DNA of 64,000 nt from Flavobacteriales bacterium (GTDB lineage: Bacteria > Bacteroidota > Bacteroidia > Palsa-965), in contig JBEIPA010000002.1 of the NCBI GenBank assembly GCA_040377305.1, positions 128,001 to 192,000 of the forward strand, written 5' to 3'. The notes under the pieces are model-generated. The model searched no databases. It was not told the DNA's origin and saw only the letters and a list, made by a program, of their open reading frames with translations. This document shows, one piece after another, positions 13,549 through 29,639 of the stretch. Positions within the stretch are counted from its first letter, which is position 1. Every line of letters begins with the position of its first letter. Made by a program: the position numbers and the translations under genes.

Positions 13549-14790
13549 ATGAACGCTCAGCAATTTCTTACATGGATGCGGAATCCGGGAACCACTTCCC
13601 GCGAAGAGAGTGCGCAATTAGATGCGTTGCTTGATTCGTTTCCGTATTTCCAGTCGGGACATTTGCTGTACATCAAGAACCTTCATAATCAGGGAAGCTT
13701 TCTTTACAACAATCAGTTAAAGACAGCGGCTGCTTATGCGGTGAATAGGAAAGTGTTGTACAACTTGATCACTCTCAAGTCGACAGACGACAGACGACAG
13801 ACGGGAGTTGAGATGAAAGCTGTAGAAGTAAAAGTTGAAGAAGTAACCAAGCCGGAAGAACAGATTTCTATTCCTCCGAAGTTTCCTACGAAGCGGTTTA
13901 CGAGTAATCCGGATGAATGGGAAGCGGGAATGCTGAGGCAGTTGCAGTTGTTGCATCATTGGCAAAAGGCGACAGACGAAAGACGGGAGACGGGAGAAAA
14001 CAGTGCGCAGTTGCCAGTGCATAATACGCCGGTACAGAAAGAAGAAGTTAAGTTGGAGGAAACTCAAACTCCTAAACTTCCTGATGCGAAGGAAGAGATC
14101 AATACTTTGCTTTATGTTCTAGTTGAGCCTGGACAATCGGAAGATTTGAGTGAAGAAACAACGGAAGAAATTTCTTCTGAAGTGGTGAGTGAAGAAAGCG
14201 AAAGTACACAGTGGGAAGTTTCTTCCTTGACCGATGAAACGGAAGAAACATTAGCTCCGATTGCTGTGCCGACGGATTTAGTACAACAGGAAATTATGGT
14301 GGAAGCGATTCATTCCTCTTTCGAATTGGAAGTGGATGATAAGATTCCGTCTGTTGAAGAAATGAAGCCATTCCGTTTGGATCCGATTGAGGAAACCACA
14401 ACAACTTCAGAAGAGAAATCGAAGGAAGAAGTTGTAGTTACGGGAATGGAGATGTCGTTCTCACAGTGGGTACAGGAGGTGAACAAAAAAGTTCCTTCTG
14501 TGTTGCCTAAAACTGCGCTTTCGACAGACTCGTTGGTGGAGCAATTTATCAAGGATGAGCCCCGCCTGAACGTCAAAAAATCGGGCTTCTACAACCCGGT
14601 GAACATGGCCAAGAAGTCCGTTCAGGAGTCGGACGAGTTCGTAACTGAAACATTAGCAAGGATTTACGCAAAGCAAGGGAATCATTTCAAGGCGATCCGT
14701 GCTTACCAGAAGTTAAGTTTGAAATTCCCGGAAAAAACCGCTTACTTTGCAGCCCTCATTGAGGAATTGAAAAGAACACCGAATAAATAG
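13549..14790 (+). CDS. Conserved hypothetical protein with acidic central linker and C-terminal TPR-like helix pair
   Basis: N-terminal [13 protein letters not shown]-terminal [34 protein letters not shown]; sits between lptE and secG. Confidence 0.8.
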
Positions 14791-18912: not shown

Positions 18913-19509
18913 ATGAAAAAACTCTACACGACAATTATTTGCTTGCTCGGTATGTCTGCGATCGGATTCGCGCAGTGCACTATCACTTCAACTACAATTA
19001 CTCCAAACGGTTTGACGATCAACGTTACCGGAACCGGCACTGGTGCTGTATTCCCTGGCTACGGCTGGGATTGGGGTGATGCAACAGCGTTCGGCTTACA
19101 ACAGACTACCTCACATACGTATGCGTCAGCGGGAACTTATAACGTTTGTATGTATTATGTAGATATTACAGACACCTCATGCCAGGATATCGATTGCCAG
19201 AGCGTAACTGTTGCAGCTGTTGGAATCAACGAAGCAAACGGTGGTGTGAGCACCATCTCCGCTGCACCAAATCCATTCGGTGCTACAACAACTTTCAATG
19301 TTAGCCTTGCAAAAAATGCCGACGTAGAAATTACTGTGTACGACGTAACAGGACAGAAAGTTGAAACTGTGAAAGACGAACAAATGAGCGCGGGCGACCA
19401 CGCGATTGTTTGGACACCTGCAACGCTTGCTGACGGAGTTTACTTCGTGCAGATGGTGATTGACGGAAACACAACTACGAAGCGTATCGTTCACACTACA
19501 GGGAAGTAA
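18913..19509 (+). CDS. Small T9SS type A substrate with one PKD domain
   Basis: Signal peptide; PKD WDWGD...SHTYASAGTYNV; CTD APNPF...VYDVTGQKV...GVYFV...TKRIV. Confidence 0.85.
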   Translation: MKKLYTTIICLLGMSAIGFAQCTITSTTITPNGLTINVTGTGTGAVFPGYGWDWGDATAFGLQQTTSHTYASAGTYNVCMYYVDITDTSCQDIDCQSVTVAAVGINEANGGVSTISAAPNPFGATTTFNVSLAKNADVEITVYDVTGQKVETVKDEQMSAGDHAIVWTPATLADGVYFVQMVIDGNTTTKRIVHTTGK

Positions 19510-19528
19510 TAATTAGTTATTGAAAAGG

Positions 19529-19562
19529 AAATCCCGTAGCGAGAGCTGCGGGATTTTTTTTG
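19529..19562. terminator. Bidirectional intrinsic terminator
   Basis: AAATCCCGTAGC-GAGA-GCTGCGGGATTT with a long T run on + and TTTCCTTTT on -. Confidence 0.8.
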
Positions 19563-19592
19563 TTCGTCGGTATAAAGAGGCCCATAAGTTTA

Positions 19593-19750
19593 TTAAGTGT
19601 GTTCCGATCAAACTAATCCTGACGACTTTGCGGCAAAGCAAAGTGTCAGGATTAGTTTTTATATATGCGCAATGCGCATATATAAAAACTAAGCGTCCGG
19701 CCACACACCGGCCGGACGCAACACACAAACACAATTTACAACACACTTAA
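19593..19750. other. 158-bp element with 11-bp terminal inverted repeats and three internal hairpins
   Basis: TTAAGTGTGTT (19593-19603) / AACACACTTAA (19740-19750); hairpins at 19610-19658, 19652-19692 and 19693-19719. Confidence 0.55.
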
Positions 19751-20193
19751 CCCTTGCTAAGCAAGTCCTTCACTATCGCGGAGATAATCTTGCCATCAGC
19801 TTTTCCAGCAAATTTTTTCGTTGCGGCGCCCATTACTTTTCCCATGTCGGCAGCGGATGTTGCTCCTAATTCGCTGATCAGATTCTGAACTTCAGTTCTG
19901 ATCTCTGCTTCATCCATCTGCTTCGGGAGGTACGCTTCAATTACACCTGCCTGGAACAATTCTACATCGGCCAGATCTTTACGATTCTGTGTTACGTAAA
20001 TTTCAGCCGATTCTTTTCTCTTCTTTACTTCCTTCTGCAACGCTTTCATTGCAGAATCTTCAGTTAATCCTTCCGGTGAAGTTTTTAAAAGCAACACCGC
20101 AGATTTTATCGCGCGAATTGCTTCCAGCCTTGGTTGGTCTTTCGCCAACATTGCTGTCTTCATATCGCTGTTTATTTTTTCTTCGATTCCCAT
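19747..20193 (-). CDS. yqeY: GatB/YqeY domain protein
   Basis: DMKTAMLAKD..RLEAIRAIKS, YLPKQM, DMGKVMG, ADGKIIS; follows ftsZ. Confidence 0.92.
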   Translation of the reverse strand: MGIEEKINSDMKTAMLAKDQPRLEAIRAIKSAVLLLKTSPEGLTEDSAMKALQKEVKKRKESAEIYVTQNRKDLADVELFQAGVIEAYLPKQMDEAEIRTEVQNLISELGATSAADMGKVMGAATKKFAGKADGKIISAIVKDLLSKG

Positions 20194-20199
20194 TACCGA

Positions 20200-23100
20200 C
20201 TAATCAACGTTGTCGTGAAGAAATGAATTGTTCGGACGAATCTCGATTTTCTTCTCCTCGTTCTCAGTCAGAGTGAAACGTGATACCTGCGATTCAGATG
20301 AGTGAGGAACATTCTCGAGGTTAACGTTGCGGCGTTTGTAAGCTGGTTCGTTTTCCATTTCGTTCAACACTTGCGGGCTCTTCAATTTCAGGCTGATGTC
20401 GCGCAGTTTCTGGATGCGCTCATTCGCACGACGCTGGATATCTTCCTGCTCCGCTTTCTTAGCAGCTTCTTGCGGATCCATTTCCGCTTTCACTTCTTCC
20501 TTGAGGATGAGTGTTGGTTCAGCAACTTCTTCAACAAATGATTCTTCGATCGATGAAGTGATCTCGCTCATTGATGGAGTTTCCGTAAACTCTTCTGAAC
20601 TGAGTTCGCTGATTGGCTCGACAATTTCCTGAGACGTACTTACGATTTCAAACTCCACGCTTGTTGTTGAAGTCCACTCCGACTTCGTTTCAGCAACCGG
20701 CTCTATCGATTTAGATACGAGGAACGGCTCCAGCGGATTCACTTCTGTTTCTGCTACAGGAGGTGTGGTTGTTTCTGCTTTCGGTGCTTCAATAACTGTT
20801 CTCTCTTCGAGCTGACGAACAACTTTTTCAGGCTGTGATTTCGGAGCGTACTCGTAGTTCACAGGATTTGTTTGCTGGAATCCGGTTGCGATGATGGTCA
20901 CGCTCACTGAATCGCCAAGTGAAGTATCAACTCCGTATCCTTTGATTATTTCTGCAGTCTGACCAGCAGCTTCCTGGATGAAGTCGGTGATTTCACCAAG
21001 CTCGTCCATTGTGATTTCTTCAGAACCGGAGATGATATTCAGCAACACATAACGCGCGCCGATAATGTTGTTGTCGTTAAGGAGCGGAGAGTTCAGTGAC
21101 ATTTCCACTGCGCGTACTGCACGGTTCTCACCCGAAGCCACTGCCGATCCCATGATTGCCACACCGCTGTTGCGCATTACTGTGCAGATATCGGCGAAGT
21201 CAACGTTGATCTGTTGTGTGATGCTGATAATTTCTGCAATGCTCTTCGCAGCTGTTGTGAGTACATCGTCAGCGTGAGCAAACGCGTCGCTCAACTTCAG
21301 GTTGCCGTACATTTCACGAAGCTTGTCGTTGCGGATAACGAGAAGCGTGTCAACGTTCTGCTTCAGCAATTCGATTCCTTCTTCAGCATACTGGCGGCGT
21401 TTCTTTCCTTCGTGTGCGAATGGAACAGTAACGATACCAACGGTAAGGATTCCCAGTTCGCGTGCAACACCAGCAATTACCGGAGCTGCACCCGTTCCAG
21501 TTCCTCCACCCATACCAGCGGTGATGAACACCATTTTGGTATTGTTGGAAAGAATTGTGCGGAGATCTTCTATGTTTTCGATTGCGGCGTTGCGACCAAC
21601 TTCAGGAATTGATCCTGCACCACGTCCTTCGGTCAAAGTAGTTCCGAGAACCACTTTGTGAGGAACAGGGCTAAGGTCGAGTGCCTGTTTATCAGTATTG
21701 CATACAAGGAAATCAACACCCTTGATGCCGAGTTTGTACATGTGATTTACAGCGTTACTGCCGCCGCCGCCAACACCAATTACCTTGATGATAGACGAGT
21801 ATTCCGGAAGTTCGAATTTCATGGCTTCTTCGGATTTGAGATTAGTATGTGTGTGTGTTTCAATTTCGAATGTTGTTGTTTCAATAGTTTCACCTTCAAA
21901 CAACGGAAGCTCGCCAGGAAGCGAAGCATTGAAGCTTGCCTCTTCAGCGATGTCTTCGAACTCTGCTACTGGTTCAACTGCGTACATCCACGAGTGTTCT
22001 ACATTTACGAACACCGGTGTTGGAGTTTCAGCTACTGGATTTGCTTCTCCTGCTAGCTCGATAGGCTGGAATTCTTCGTTGAATATTGTGTTGTGTGACT
22101 CTGACATATTATGGTTTGCTGCTTCTGTGTTGGTAACGTTGCTTATCTCCCAGCCCATCTCAGTCGTACCGGTAGGCATTATCGTATCTTCTACGGTATC
22201 GGCAACGGGTGACATATTTATTTCAAAGGCCGGTTCAAGTCCGATTGCTTCGAGTGTTTCACTGATTACTTCCGGTGTAAATTCCGCGATCGGCATTTGA
22301 ACCGAATGTTCTTCGACCAGCGAAGCAAAATCAACATCTGCAACCGGATCGGCAGTCCATTCAGCTACCGGATCAGGGGTCCATTCTGCAACAGGATCAG
22401 CTACCACTTCAATTGATCCGGCAATTTCAACTTCTGAACTAATTTCTGAAATCAATTCTATTTCAGATTCAACTTTCCCAAGCGGCTCCATACTTATTTC
22501 CGCAAGCACGTCTTCGGATACTTCTGCAACGATCTCTTCAATCTCAACTGGAGCCAATTCTTCAACAACAGCAACAGTTGTTTCTTCAACAACCGCTTCA
22601 ACTGGCGAAACTGCTTCGATATCTGAAGTCACTACAACTTCCCCAACAACTTCAACTTCGCTTGTAATTTCTGCAACCGGAATAATTTCCAGTTCCTCTA
22701 CTGGTTCTACCTCATGATTAGCCTCGGCAGCAGATATAATATCACTGATCGGTTCTGAAACAATTTCAGATACCGGAACATTATGTGTTTCAACAATTGC
22801 AGCTTTCACTTCTTCATTGTTGTAATCGAATTCTTCATCATTCTCACCACCGATGTTTCCGAATCCCTTCATGATATCAGCAACGGAGCGAAACTTTGGC
22901 AATTCAACTTTTGGTTTCGCCTCAACCGGAACTTCTTCTTTCATTTCAGCATTCGCACCAATCTGATTCTCCAGGATGAACTTTGACGTTGTTTCTGACT
23001 CTTCTTTGGCCATCATCTCTGCCCATTCTTTGTCGAACTCCGCATCCCCAGTAGATTCTGCGACCGGACTAACCGGTGTAATTTTATTCACAGTTTCGTC

Positions 23101-23238
23101 CTGCTTCACAGCATCTTTGAAATTCCAGCGCTTTGGAAAACCATCGTTCGAAATCGGAGACGTGTTGTTCATTGACTGAGTGTTTGCCTTCTCCTCGTTC
23201 GATCCCATCTGATTGTTTGAAATTTCATTGAAATCCAT
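20200..23238 (-). CDS. ftsZ: Cell division protein FtsZ with an in-frame 472-aa acidic N-terminal extension; canonical-length form would start at 21822
   Basis: IIKVIGVGGGGSNAV, GMGGGTGTGAAP, INVDFAD, SPLLNDN, C-terminal EPAYKRR...NNSFLHDNVD. Start position uncertain (23238 or 21822). Confidence 0.95.
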   Translation of the reverse strand: MDFNEISNNQMGSNEEKANTQSMNNTSPISNDGFPKRWNFKDAVKQDETVNKITPVSPVAESTGDAEFDKEWAEMMAKEESETTSKFILENQIGANAEMKEEVPVEAKPKVELPKFRSVADIMKGFGNIGGENDEEFDYNNEEVKAAIVETHNVPVSEIVSEPISDIISAAEANHEVEPVEELEIIPVAEITSEVEVVGEVVVTSDIEAVSPVEAVVEETTVAVVEELAPVEIEEIVAEVSEDVLAEISMEPLGKVESEIELISEISSEVEIAGSIEVVADPVAEWTPDPVAEWTADPVADVDFASLVEEHSVQMPIAEFTPEVISETLEAIGLEPAFEINMSPVADTVEDTIMPTGTTEMGWEISNVTNTEAANHNMSESHNTIFNEEFQPIELAGEANPVAETPTPVFVNVEHSWMYAVEPVAEFEDIAEEASFNASLPGELPLFEGETIETTTFEIETHTHTNLKSEEAMKFELPEYSSIIKVIGVGGGGSNAVNHMYKLGIKGVDFLVCNTDKQALDLSPVPHKVVLGTTLTEGRGAGSIPEVGRNAAIENIEDLRTILSNNTKMVFITAGMGGGTGTGAAPVIAGVARELGILTVGIVTVPFAHEGKKRRQYAEEGIELLKQNVDTLLVIRNDKLREMYGNLKLSDAFAHADDVLTTAAKSIAEIISITQQINVDFADICTVMRNSGVAIMGSAVASGENRAVRAVEMSLNSPLLNDNNIIGARYVLLNIISGSEEITMDELGEITDFIQEAAGQTAEIIKGYGVDTSLGDSVSVTIIATGFQQTNPVNYEYAPKSQPEKVVRQLEERTVIEAPKAETTTPPVAETEVNPLEPFLVSKSIEPVAETKSEWTSTTSVEFEIVSTSQEIVEPISELSSEEFTETPSMSEITSSIEESFVEEVAEPTLILKEEVKAEMDPQEAAKKAEQEDIQRRANERIQKLRDISLKLKSPQVLNEMENEPAYKRRNVNLENVPHSSESQVSRFTLTENEEKKIEIRPNNSFLHDNVD

Positions 23239-23390
23239 AGGATACAGTTTGGATAAAAACTGATGAAAATTACTTTACATCTGCGCAAGCAAAACTTTAT
23301 GTAGGGATAACTTGTTAACGCTTAAATGTTGATAGCTCAACGAATTGCACATCGCAAAATCAAGCGTGGAACATTTCCGTGTAACAAGAA

Positions 23391-24668
23391 CTACCCATTA
23401 GGATCTTCCTCGAACCATTGTTTTCCCTTCGTGAATATCTGATCGAACCATCCGCCGCGCTTTTTAGTGTCGGAATGACCCGTTACGATGTTGGTTTTCT
23501 CTTCATTCGGCTTCTGCTTTGCATAAGCAACCAGCCCACGCATCACTAAACCAACACCGGTTGCATACATCGGACTCGTTACATCCTCCGAACTATTCGC
23601 CAGATGTTCGTTTGGATAACCAACACGCGTATCCATGCCAGTCACGTACTCCATCAATTGGGTAATGTGTTTAAGCTGCGATCCACCACCAGTAACTACG
23701 ATCCCTGCGATCAGCTTTTTCTCATACCCCGAATTCTTGATTTCGTAGTACACATGTTCCACGATTTCTTCCATACGCGCCTGAATAATGTGCGCCAGAT
23801 TTTTCACTGAAATTTCCTTGTGTGGGCGTCCGCGCAACCCAGGAATTGAAACAATCTCGTTCTCCTGATTCTCTGAAGCTAATGCAGAACCGAACTTCAC
23901 TTTTAAAAGCTCTGCCTGCGTTTTGATTATACTGCAACCTTCTTTAATATCTTCCGTGATGATGTTTCCACCGAATGGAATTACTGCAGTATGTCGAATG
24001 ATGCCGTCGTGGAATATTGCTACATCGGTTGTACCACCACCGATGTCAACTAGTACTACACCCGCCTCTTTTTCTTCGTCACTCAAAACTGCATCTGCAG
24101 ACGCCAGTGGTTCCAAAGTCAGGTCCGCCACTTCAAGTCCTGCTTTGTTTACACACTTGTAAATATTACGGGCCGCCGCAACCTGTCCTGTAATGATGTG
24201 GAAGTTCGCTTCGAGGCGCGTTCCTGCCATTCCAATCGGGTTCTTGATTCCGATTTCGCTATCCACAATGTACTCTTGCGGAATCACGTGAATAATTTCT
24301 TCGCCCGGTGACATCACCAAGCGGTACATATCTTCGATGAGCTCGTCAATATCTTTCTGACTGATTTCGTCGTCAAGACTGCGGCGGGTTTTCATACCAC
24401 GATGCTGCAGACTCTTGATGTGTTGTCCGGCAATTCCCACGTTGACAACTTTAATGTCAACACCGGATTTATTGCTGGCTTCTTCCAACGCCATCTTGAT
24501 TGCCTTTACGGTCTCGTCGATGTTCAAAACCACTCCACGGGCAACACCGAGTGATTCAGCTTTACCCATACCGAGGATTTCAATTTTTCCATGCTCAGTA
24601 CGTCGTCCCACCAGTGCGGCGATTTTAGTGGTTCCGATGTCAAGACCGACTACGATTTCAGATTCCAT
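23391..24668 (-). CDS. ftsA: Cell division protein FtsA
   Basis: VGLDIGTTKI, VDIGGGTTD, VTGGGSQL, YATGVGL, amphipathic C-terminus WFDQIFTKGKQWF. Confidence 0.98.
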   Translation of the reverse strand: MESEIVVGLDIGTTKIAALVGRRTEHGKIEILGMGKAESLGVARGVVLNIDETVKAIKMALEEASNKSGVDIKVVNVGIAGQHIKSLQHRGMKTRRSLDDEISQKDIDELIEDMYRLVMSPGEEIIHVIPQEYIVDSEIGIKNPIGMAGTRLEANFHIITGQVAAARNIYKCVNKAGLEVADLTLEPLASADAVLSDEEKEAGVVLVDIGGGTTDVAIFHDGIIRHTAVIPFGGNIITEDIKEGCSIIKTQAELLKVKFGSALASENQENEIVSIPGLRGRPHKEISVKNLAHIIQARMEEIVEHVYYEIKNSGYEKKLIAGIVVTGGGSQLKHITQLMEYVTGMDTRVGYPNEHLANSSEDVTSPMYATGVGLVMRGLVAYAKQKPNEEKTNIVTGHSDTKKRGGWFDQIFTKGKQWFEEDPNG

Positions 24669-25473
24669 TTGTGATTGGCTTTTTGGTACAAACTATTTGA
24701 TTTTTATAGCGCAGATCAATTGCACTATACTCTGTCCATCGGCCCGTTGTATTAAGGCCATGGATGTAAAAAAGATTTAGCTTTTTAAATTTTGCATCGA
24801 TATTCTGAACATCACCGAAGACGATTTTGTGATCGCCCACCCGTGGGATTAATTCGAATCCATTATCCGGTGATAAGTACAACTGAACCATCTGAACGCG
24901 CAGGAATGAATCAGCATCAATTGCCTTCACTACATTCCAGATGTTATCGAGTGCCGTTGCGGTCTTCATTGCAGAATCAGCATCGATAAGACTGAAATCC
25001 TTGTTCTTCATATCTGCATACGTCTCAATGAAATTTCCATTTACGATGATTACCGGAGCAGTGTATTGTTCAGACCACGGCATGAGCTTACCATTTTCAT
25101 CCATGTAATAGGATTCTCCCGACAAATTTGTGAGACGCGCTATTGGTCGGCGCTGTTGAACTCTGAGTAATACTTTTCCTTCGACAGTAATACACGCCTC
25201 ACAAGTTTGAACAGAGGGATTAGACAACACCAGCTGTTCAATTACCGGAATATCAATTTCAGAAATCGCCTGTCGATCTGCACTGAAACCATTACTGATG
25301 AGCAAGGTGTTCAGTGTTTCCTCCGGAATAAATTCGTGTTGACCGATTGGCTCGATCACAATGTCAACCCCCATTGCAACGCGCTTCTCGTGCTGATGCA
25401 TCGCGAATCCGGTAAGGAAAATTATTGCAATGCCACAGAGAACCCAGGCAGATATAATGAGAATCCGTTTCAT
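24658..25473 (-). CDS. ftsQ: Cell division protein FtsQ
   Basis: N-terminal TM, POTRA-like region, QRRPIAR, IDLRYKNQIVC; between murC and ftsA. Confidence 0.88.
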   Translation of the reverse strand: MKRILIISAWVLCGIAIIFLTGFAMHQHEKRVAMGVDIVIEPIGQHEFIPEETLNTLLISNGFSADRQAISEIDIPVIEQLVLSNPSVQTCEACITVEGKVLLRVQQRRPIARLTNLSGESYYMDENGKLMPWSEQYTAPVIIVNGNFIETYADMKNKDFSLIDADSAMKTATALDNIWNVVKAIDADSFLRVQMVQLYLSPDNGFELIPRVGDHKIVFGDVQNIDAKFKKLNLFYIHGLNTTGRWTEYSAIDLRYKNQIVCTKKPITNGI

Positions 25474-29129: not shown

Positions 29130-29639
29130 TCATTTCGTATATAATTCTGTCCTAACCGCGTCGCGGAAACTATTTCCACGATTGCGATAATTGTCAAACG
29201 CGTCATAACTCGGACAACCCGGTGCGAACAAAACCGACTTCGCATTGTTCCTGCTCAGTGTGTGTGCAGTTTTCACTGCTTCCTGGATATAAGTTGCACG
29301 GACAATAAGGTGAGCGCTCCCGCTAAAAGCCTCTACATATTTCCATGGCGTTGTTCCTAAACAAACAACTGCTGCAACCTTCTCCTTTATTAAACCACTG
29401 AGCTTGTACTGATCGCTTGCACGATCTGTACCGCCAATTATCAGCACCACCGGACCTTGTACATCGCGTAGTGCCAACCAGGCGAGATCAGTTGTCGTTG
29501 CCATAGAATGATTGATCCATGCAACTCCATCCTTCTCACACACCGTTTCAAAACAGTGCGATTCGTCGCCCTGCATTTTGAGACGTGCATTGATCAGCTC
29601 TTGCTGTTGTGAAAGTGTTTGATCGGTGGTTAAGTACAT
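29130..29639 (-). CDS. Stand-alone degenerate paralogue of the MurD C-terminal domain
   Basis: Aligns by eye to the last ~160 aa of the adjacent MurD: [92 protein letters not shown]. Confidence 0.85.
   Translation of the reverse strand: [169 protein letters not shown]

Follow-up and report, generated by a model that had tools for sequence, protein, structure and literature searches.

An acidic N-terminal arm on FtsZ in two sister genera of Bacteroidia, with a likely retained ancestral start

Why does the division protein FtsZ of a Flavobacteriales bacterium begin 472 residues ahead of its usual start, and is the usual start still in use? The question was raised by a 64,000-nt stretch of assembly GCA_040377305.1 (contig JBEIPA010000002.1, positions 128,001 to 192,000 of the forward strand; hereafter the window), in which ftsZ had been predicted from sequence alone to carry a long acidic N-terminal extension, here called the arm. 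Comparison with related genomes showed a fused reading frame restricted to one clade, selection on short islands within the arm, an upstream element at fixed spacing, and nucleotide constraint around the ancestral start codon (Met473). With about even confidence, we propose that the protein is a canonical FtsZ with a lineage-specific acidic, predicted-disordered arm, likely made as a 110-kDa and a 59-kDa form that co-assemble in the division ring.

The ftsZ gene was confirmed as a single frame of 1012 codons at 20200-23238 on the minus strand of the window. Met473 opens MKFELPEYSSIIKVIG, hence 21823-23238 is an open frame of 1416 nt ahead of the ancestral start, as originally predicted. The parts of the gene are as follows.

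20200..20871, minus strand: acidic C-terminal linker, predicted helix (residues 922-963), conserved tail (NEPAYKRR ... FLHDNVD) and stop codon
20875..21789, minus strand: GTPase and C-terminal core domains of FtsZ; GGGTGTG box and T7 loop NVDFAD both intact
21820..21861, minus strand: A/C-rich stretch (encoding ETHTHTNLKSEEA) with the ancestral ATG (Met473), which probably still serves as an internal translation start
21823..23238, minus strand: acidic, predicted-disordered N-terminal arm, residues 1-472

The open reading frame (ORF) at 20200..23238 scored 364 bits against TIGR00065 (cut-off 295), with Pfam Tubulin at residues 484-644 (151 bits) and FtsZ_C at residues 692-788 (73 bits). The GGGTGTG box was located at residues 577-583 and NVDFAD at residues 678-683. 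The gene lies behind ftsA in the dcw cluster and its product has the disordered linker and conserved C-terminal tail of FtsZ; ftsZ was also the only tubulin-family match in the genome. By every sequence test run, the protein is a true FtsZ. No Pfam domain was found above cut-off over residues 1-472. Predicted masses are 110.5 kDa from Met1 and 58.9 kDa from Met473.

The distribution of the arm was followed through the order, which comprises one family with 35 genomes in three genera (g1, g18 and g19). In g1 the upstream start was present in 27/27 genomes, 25 of them with complete in-frame arms of 56-472 aa; in the other two, the arm is split over two contigs (G015) or the contig ends after 7 codons (G018). 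Both genomes of the sister genus g19 carry 38-aa arms. None of the four ftsZ loci located in the basal genus g18 is armed (ftsZ was located in four of six genomes, the other two being 59% and 81% complete). The same holds for 47 ftsZ loci of other Bacteroidia, where 14-22 residues separate the first Met from the GTPase motif in 46 loci and 41 in one; these outgroup loci were 7 plus 40 chosen among the 150 matches listed, half of them for their longest open frames. In the core tree the arm-bearers (g1 and g19) formed one clade against g18 and the outgroups (ultrafast bootstrap 100), so a single gain is the simplest reading. The family counts include G012, without which the synonymous and codon tests below were run a second time; G122 and G198 enter the class tallies only. 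In the ftsZ frame of G005, VIGVDLG stands at the position of the glycine motif, probably because of an assembly gap.

A search with the arm sequence returned 25 proteins, all of them FtsZ, of 836-1040 aa. With phmmer, residues 1-462 gave two matches among 1.84 billion representatives, both within the clade, and no outside homologue. A protein atlas gave no usable match. Arm lengths in the family form a series of 0, 38, 56-91, 143-221 and 288-472 aa. Across 27 loci, arms of at most 91 aa go with C-terminal linkers of 258-358 aa and arms of at least 170 aa with linkers of 131-163 aa. In the short-arm members G002 and G017 the C-terminal linker holds long repeat arrays of the P-I-A-E-V-T-L-E-E-E-I type, with 18 P[VI]AE words in G002.

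Several origins were considered. Fusion with a pre-existing small gene is unsupported, as a profile of 14 N-termini gave no stand-alone gene in four g18 genomes and matched only ftsZ in G000. For duplication of the C-terminal linker, there was no intragenic DNA repeat longer than 14 nt and protein similarity reached a z of up to 7.7, which can be explained by shared PVAE words. The arm tip was rejected as a copy of the normal FtsZ start; in the N-terminus alignment just M-x-F fits, in a subset of sequences. Compensation for a lost divisome gene was likewise discarded: ZapA was present in 5/5 genomes and MinC and SepF in 0/5, alike in armed and armless members.

The second part of the question is whether Met473 still starts translation. 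Codons ahead of it encode residues that shift among T, H, N, Q and K, and A- or C-ending codons are kept throughout. In 22 de-duplicated genomes, 76% of the Thr codons before Met473 were ACA against 36%, and 25/25 Gln codons were CAA against 41%. In 12 lineage representatives, codons -15 to -4 had ACA for 23/31 Thr (88/262 elsewhere), CAA for 12/12 Gln (28/112) and AAC for 27/32 Asn (84/205). Excess synonymous identity peaked ahead of Met473 in both the long-arm and the short-arm clade, at 0.73-0.83 against gene medians of 0.14-0.21, which is the 96th-99th percentile of about 380 windows in these two clades. The first 12 codons past Met473 had an excess of 0.52-0.65, compared with 0.65 at the true start of armless g18, and windows before other internal Mets reached at most 0.51. 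The A+C content before Met473 was matched by only 0.17% of 15,211 internal ATGs and resembles that of the EF-Tu leader of the genome. In Bacteroidota, translation starts from A-rich, unstructured leaders and does not use Shine-Dalgarno pairing (PMC6847099). An internal promoter before Met473 was rejected, since TAnnTTT[G/C] occurred within 200 nt in 5/26 arm-bearing loci at scattered positions.

Met473 was present wherever its position is visible, in 25/25 aligned sequences and also in G009, G005 and G022. This invariance was set aside as strong evidence and counts as weak evidence, because most core Mets are likewise invariant: in 7/8 other core Met columns, at most one of the 25 sequences lacks M. 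Start contexts were scored with a matrix built from 1191 unambiguous starts of the genome (area under the curve 0.94, not cross-validated). Met1 scored above 99.6% of internal ATGs and was the best-scoring ATG in the gene. Met473 reached 87-99.7 as a percentile among relatives, with G009 at 61. Several further results weigh against a live inner start. In this genome Met473 outranked 89% of internal ATGs and 18% of true starts, and both M23 and M890 outscored it. A third clade, of three genomes, peaked in synonymous identity upstream of Met473 and not downstream. In G011 the A/C tract is weak. Saturation at four-fold sites is incomplete (median identity 0.39, 0.27 expected by chance), and some of the codon bias may accordingly be inherited.

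These results bear on the strongest alternative, that the long FtsZ is the sole product, with the arm sitting permanently on every subunit. The A/C stretch would then be a leftover of the leader, serve another RNA-level role such as ribosome pacing or cleavage, or encode an uncharged hinge. The high score of Met1, the mediocre one of Met473 in this genome and the incomplete saturation of synonymous sites are all in its favour, as is the tolerance of FtsZ for long linkers (bioRxiv 2025.11.25.690400). It does not account for the synonymous conservation at the old start, which in two clades is far above that of the adjoining arm, linker and core and equals the true-start control, nor for encoded residues that interchange among T, H, N, Q and K on DNA that remains A/C-rich. 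We regard it as rather unlikely. A conserved in-frame internal ATG in a start-like RNA context, with a moderate position score in this genome, is what a dual start should leave in sequence, and we lean towards two FtsZ products from one gene.

Upstream of the arm, the gap from the ftsA stop codon to Met1 measures 152 nt and contains a promoter-like element.

23212..23238, minus strand: upstream start codon (Met1) and N-terminal motif, from the start-site score and an alignment of 14 N-termini
23265..23272, minus strand: TAATTTTC, likely -7 promoter box, one mismatch to TAnnTTTG
23311..23334, minus strand: palindromic operator-like box (ATCAACA-N7-GTTAACAAG), like two head-to-head DnaA boxes
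23391..24668, minus strand: ftsA, the gene upstream of ftsZ, over the TIGR01174 cut-off

The palindrome is the sole match in the window, where 0.01 would be expected by chance. The pattern AT[CGT]AACA-N7-GTT was found upstream of the new ATG in 31/31 arm-bearing loci (27 distinct sequences), and in 27/27 distinct sequences its GTT lies exactly 47 bp from TAATTTTC, with the ATG 25-36 nt further on. It was not found in the 4 g18 or 47 outgroup ftsZ loci. The strict architecture occurred twice in the genome, at ftsZ and at ftsK (0 in the control; FtsK identity confirmed), and at ftsK, as at other genes, the second element matches TAnnTTTG in full and in the same register. Of the family's ftsK loci, 20/30 passed a simple version of the test. 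The DnaA-box consensus is TTATCCACA. In G043, G048 and G050 the ftsK loci fail the simple test, yet their left half is a perfect TTATCCACA; at ftsZ the boxes are degenerate. Class-wide, TWATYAACA-N6-TGTTWRYAA stood 46-48 bp before TAnnTTTG in 52/201 genomes against one control hit, mostly at genes for outer-membrane barrels and tetratricopeptide repeat (TPR) proteins and also at ftsK, gyrA and exbB-like genes.

TAnnTTTG is the consensus of the Bacteroidota -7 promoter box (PMC7366714), and we read the element as a predicted activator site lying some 60 bp ahead of a weak -7 box. For the binder of the palindrome our best guess is DnaA, held at somewhat less than even confidence; with so many envelope genes among the targets, a regulator other than DnaA is equally plausible. 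No origin-like cluster of DnaA boxes was found by which the genome's own box could be defined. Overall, the original prediction was partly supported; it included neither this promoter-like element nor the signs of a live ancestral start. As separate observations, the same palindrome with a third box was seen in G000 (contig C46, near 37937) upstream of a small Lys/Ala-rich, histone-H1-like gene, and a related site was seen in G004, G005 and G006.

The start of the arm carries the clade consensus M-D-x-Y-x-[IM]-F-[DE], the arm feature most widely shared across the clade, and this motif is the core of a second alternative. The motif would be a degradation or adaptor tag, or the arm would be cut off; the long form, made from the ftsK-type promoter, would be short-lived or inactive and the short form would do the work. 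In favour of such a regulatory handle, no feature of the arm is older or more widely kept than this 9-residue hydrophobic and acidic motif, which is already present in 38-aa arms and arrived along with the new promoter. The alternative leaves unexplained why arms grew to 470 aa and took on seven more selected islands, and why the motif eroded in the longest arms; we consider it improbable.

The arm itself agreed with its predicted description as an E/V/A/P/S-rich acidic extension (E 18.9%, V 11.2, A 9.3, I 7.4, S 7.4, T 7.0 and P 6.4). It has 109 D+E against 18 K+R, a net charge of -91 or -0.19 per residue, and is the longest acidic tract among the 3406 ORFs called by script in the genome. A 413-aa protein at 13549-14790 (plus strand) has a long acidic central tract, the third longest of the proteome behind FtsZ and FtsK. 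PVA[E/D] was repeated as expected, with eight occurrences in the arm, where 5000 shuffles gave a mean of 0.07 and at most 2; the C-terminal linker holds two more, at 827 and 847. The tandem unit and both basic or aromatic islands that had been pointed out (GFPKRWNFK and a second) were also present. In order from the N-terminus, the features of the arm are listed below.

23107..23142, minus strand: island P-x-R-W-x-F (GFPKRWNFKDAV), in 25/25 long-arm proteins
22963..23052, minus strand: island GD-x-EFD-K/R-EWAEM, residues 66-91, motif core in 25/25 proteins
22849..22902, minus strand: candidate amphipathic helix LPKFRSVADIMKGFGNIG, in 14/25 long-arm proteins
22336..22401, minus strand: 24-nt tandem unit (A/P)DPVAEWT, 2.6 copies, in a drifting spacer
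22210..22281, minus strand: island FTPEVISETLEAIGLEPAFEIN, in the closest relatives alone, 12/25 proteins
21898..22083, minus strand: three proximal islands F-x-PI-x-LA, PVFVNVEHSWMY and PGELPLF, each in 25/25 proteins

Five islands are thus common to 25/25 long-arm proteins, and two more occur in 14 and 12 of the 25. When scored against 11 relatives or pieces, the islands had proportions of nonsynonymous differences (pN) of 0.12-0.35 against saturated synonymous ones (pS) of 0.71-0.93, and the spacers had pN of 0.32-0.54; since the islands were defined from the same alignment, the contrast between islands and spacers is inflated. Length changes between the arms of relatives come in whole codons. 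In strain X2, 7/8 listed differences in the arm change an amino acid, all within one spacer, and 6/6 single-contig differences in the core are silent. From these patterns the short islands are under purifying selection, and the spacers drift and freely accept amino-acid changes. The proposal of selection on the extension therefore stands for the islands, where pN is well below pS, and fails for the PVAE repeats. The tandem repeat (called at 22340-22401, period 24, 78% matches) had been put forward as a sign of protein selection. Its copies differ at third positions as described, and because the repeat is not conserved letter for letter in relatives, it is weak evidence for selection.

AlphaFold2 agreed with the predicted disorder. 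In the whole protein the arm had a predicted local distance difference test score (pLDDT) below 50 except for residues 66-91, its one confidently predicted helix (pLDDT about 75-82); the core was weak in that run (mean pLDDT 42). With a deeper alignment of residues 376-800 the core folded well and residues 376-479 were unplaced, with pLDDT below 50.

A third alternative takes up the membrane helix suggested in the original prediction: residues 116-126 would tether FtsZ directly to the membrane and supplement FtsA. The candidate helix has the highest hydrophobic moment in the arm (0.73, net charge +1), above the 0.55 of the FtsA tail of this genome, and its pattern is conserved. It lies in a strongly acidic context and was not observed in other lineages with their short and medium arms; FtsA and its tail are intact. 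Occurring in just 14/25 long-arm proteins, the helix cannot explain the arm in general, and a tether is judged quite improbable. Condensates, the other suggested role, would be formed by the arm with polycations or basic partners. A long low-complexity region with scattered aromatic islands would suit them, while a charge of -0.19 per residue argues against self-association in the absence of a polycation; with nearly no basic blocks and no partner found, the idea was left without support and is very unlikely.

Assembly error or untranslated intergenic DNA is already refuted by the comparative sequence data, with open frames in all relatives examined (no stop or frameshift was found), whole-codon length changes, a conserved start context and island pN far below pS, even though the X1 contig may be the source assembly and so not independent and the X2 spacer differences are mostly amino-acid changing. 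That contig, of run X1, spans 19719-24800 with zero differences. Parts of the arm are also covered, with no indel, by contigs of runs X2 and X3, which belong to two other studies; the open frame is no mis-assembly.

In the history that we propose, an ftsK-type promoter and a new ATG would have been acquired between ftsA and ftsZ by the ancestor of g1 and g19, and the old A/C-rich leader would thereby have become coding sequence. The arm would have started at about 40 aa and grown to 470 through repeat expansion and motif gain. Both starts would be used, giving the 110-kDa form from Met1 and the 59-kDa form from Met473, and the two, having identical core and tail, would co-polymerise. The arm would act as a second linker of the C-terminal kind, a charged and flexible brush, weakening or spacing lateral filament contacts and competing with the native N-terminal tail. 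The islands would be docking motifs for partners or the membrane, and the ratio of long to short form would set the brush load of the ring. A linker-like role is suggested by the similar composition and PVAE words of arm and C-terminal linker and by the pairing of long arms with short linkers and short arms with long ones. Filament spacing by the arm, the remaining suggestion of the original prediction, is plausible. The most complete version of the proposal, with two isoforms building the ring, a de novo acidic brush on some of the subunits setting filament spacing and curvature, new docking motifs, and a captured DnaA-type promoter shared with ftsK tying the making of these forms to chromosome replication, is held as doubtful.

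Other observations count against this proposal. The trade-off between arm and linker rests on an unsettled tree backbone (support 29-61) and may reflect only one or two events, and related genomes are not independent data points. In this genome the N-terminal motif has eroded to MDFNEISNN, and erosion is seen in its closest kin as well. In the AlphaFold2 model of residues 376-800 the proximal islands do not dock onto the FtsZ core, and no binding partner was found for the arm islands.

Compared with canonical bacterial FtsZ (TIGR00065; PDB 8h1o, 9isk and 4dxd), the protein has the same domains, G-box, T7 loop, linker, tail, post-ftsA position and single copy. It differs in its 472 extra N-terminal residues, where the listed solved full-length chains have about 10-25 before the core. 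The bacterial genes infB, clpB and cheA have two in-frame starts. As in these, one gene here would give a long and a short product, both predicted, with RNA-level constraint at the inner start.

The closest counterpart in position is the N-terminal peptide of cyanobacterial FtsZ, which in Anabaena affects filament shape and partner binding (PMC6175996). The cyanobacterial extension is lineage-specific, conserved within clades, often missed by annotation and 20 to over 80 aa long. The arm is likewise lineage-specific and clade-conserved, at 38-472 aa; it differs in being strongly acidic, in retaining the inner start and in its co-acquired promoter-like element. Homology to the cyanobacterial peptide was not found with phmmer (residues 1-462; not a direct pairwise comparison). 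The N-terminal tail of FtsZ acts on polymer disassembly and bundling (PMC12137876, PMC6175996), and in E. coli the disordered N-terminal region is a cis disassembly element beside the longitudinal interface (PMC12137876). A disordered N-terminus, here a predicted one, is common to both; the native tail is short, and here its segment MKFELPE is kept and hundreds of residues are added ahead of it.

C-terminal linkers of FtsZ span 13-433 aa with a Bacteroidota peak near 295, and in E. coli linker charge tunes ring geometry, which is also altered by mixing linker variants (bioRxiv 2025.11.25.690400). With Bacteroidota linkers the arm has in common its composition, charge, PVAE words, predicted disorder and helical islands; it is N-terminal, longer than the longest linker of that survey, and untethered to the FtsA-binding tail. 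The Caulobacter ftsZ promoter is regulated by DnaA through two DnaA boxes (PMC3193534). Two DnaA-box-like 9-mers upstream of ftsZ are common to both, but here they are degenerate, head to head, 46-48 bp from a Bacteroidota -7 box and common to many outer-membrane genes, with a putative binder.

A full-text literature search, covering few subscription papers, turned up neither this arm nor a bacterial ftsZ with two starts, and nothing on this type of promoter. The longest N-terminal FtsZ extension found in the available literature has about 80 residues, against 472 here. If both forms are made, the gene would do naturally what has been done in vitro by mixing linker variants, which changes Z-ring geometry, and would offer a single-gene way to two-FtsZ systems like those of plastids and archaea. 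Across the family, a former untranslated leader appears to have turned into a selected protein arm on an essential gene, promoter included, and the promoter type is widespread in Bacteroidia.

Around the locus, the dcw cluster lies on the minus strand of the window with the distal order murC-ftsQ-ftsA-ftsZ-yqeY-like. An Rfam scan of 19400-24000 gave no match. At 19620-19760 (plus strand), two inverted repeats are followed by an A/C-rich tract resembling a strong leader, with no listed ORF behind it. Further upstream in the cluster, a 169-aa ORF at 29130-29639 (minus strand) matches the C-terminal part of MurD only (TIGR01087 positions 286-440) and sits between full-length murD and an ftsW-like gene.

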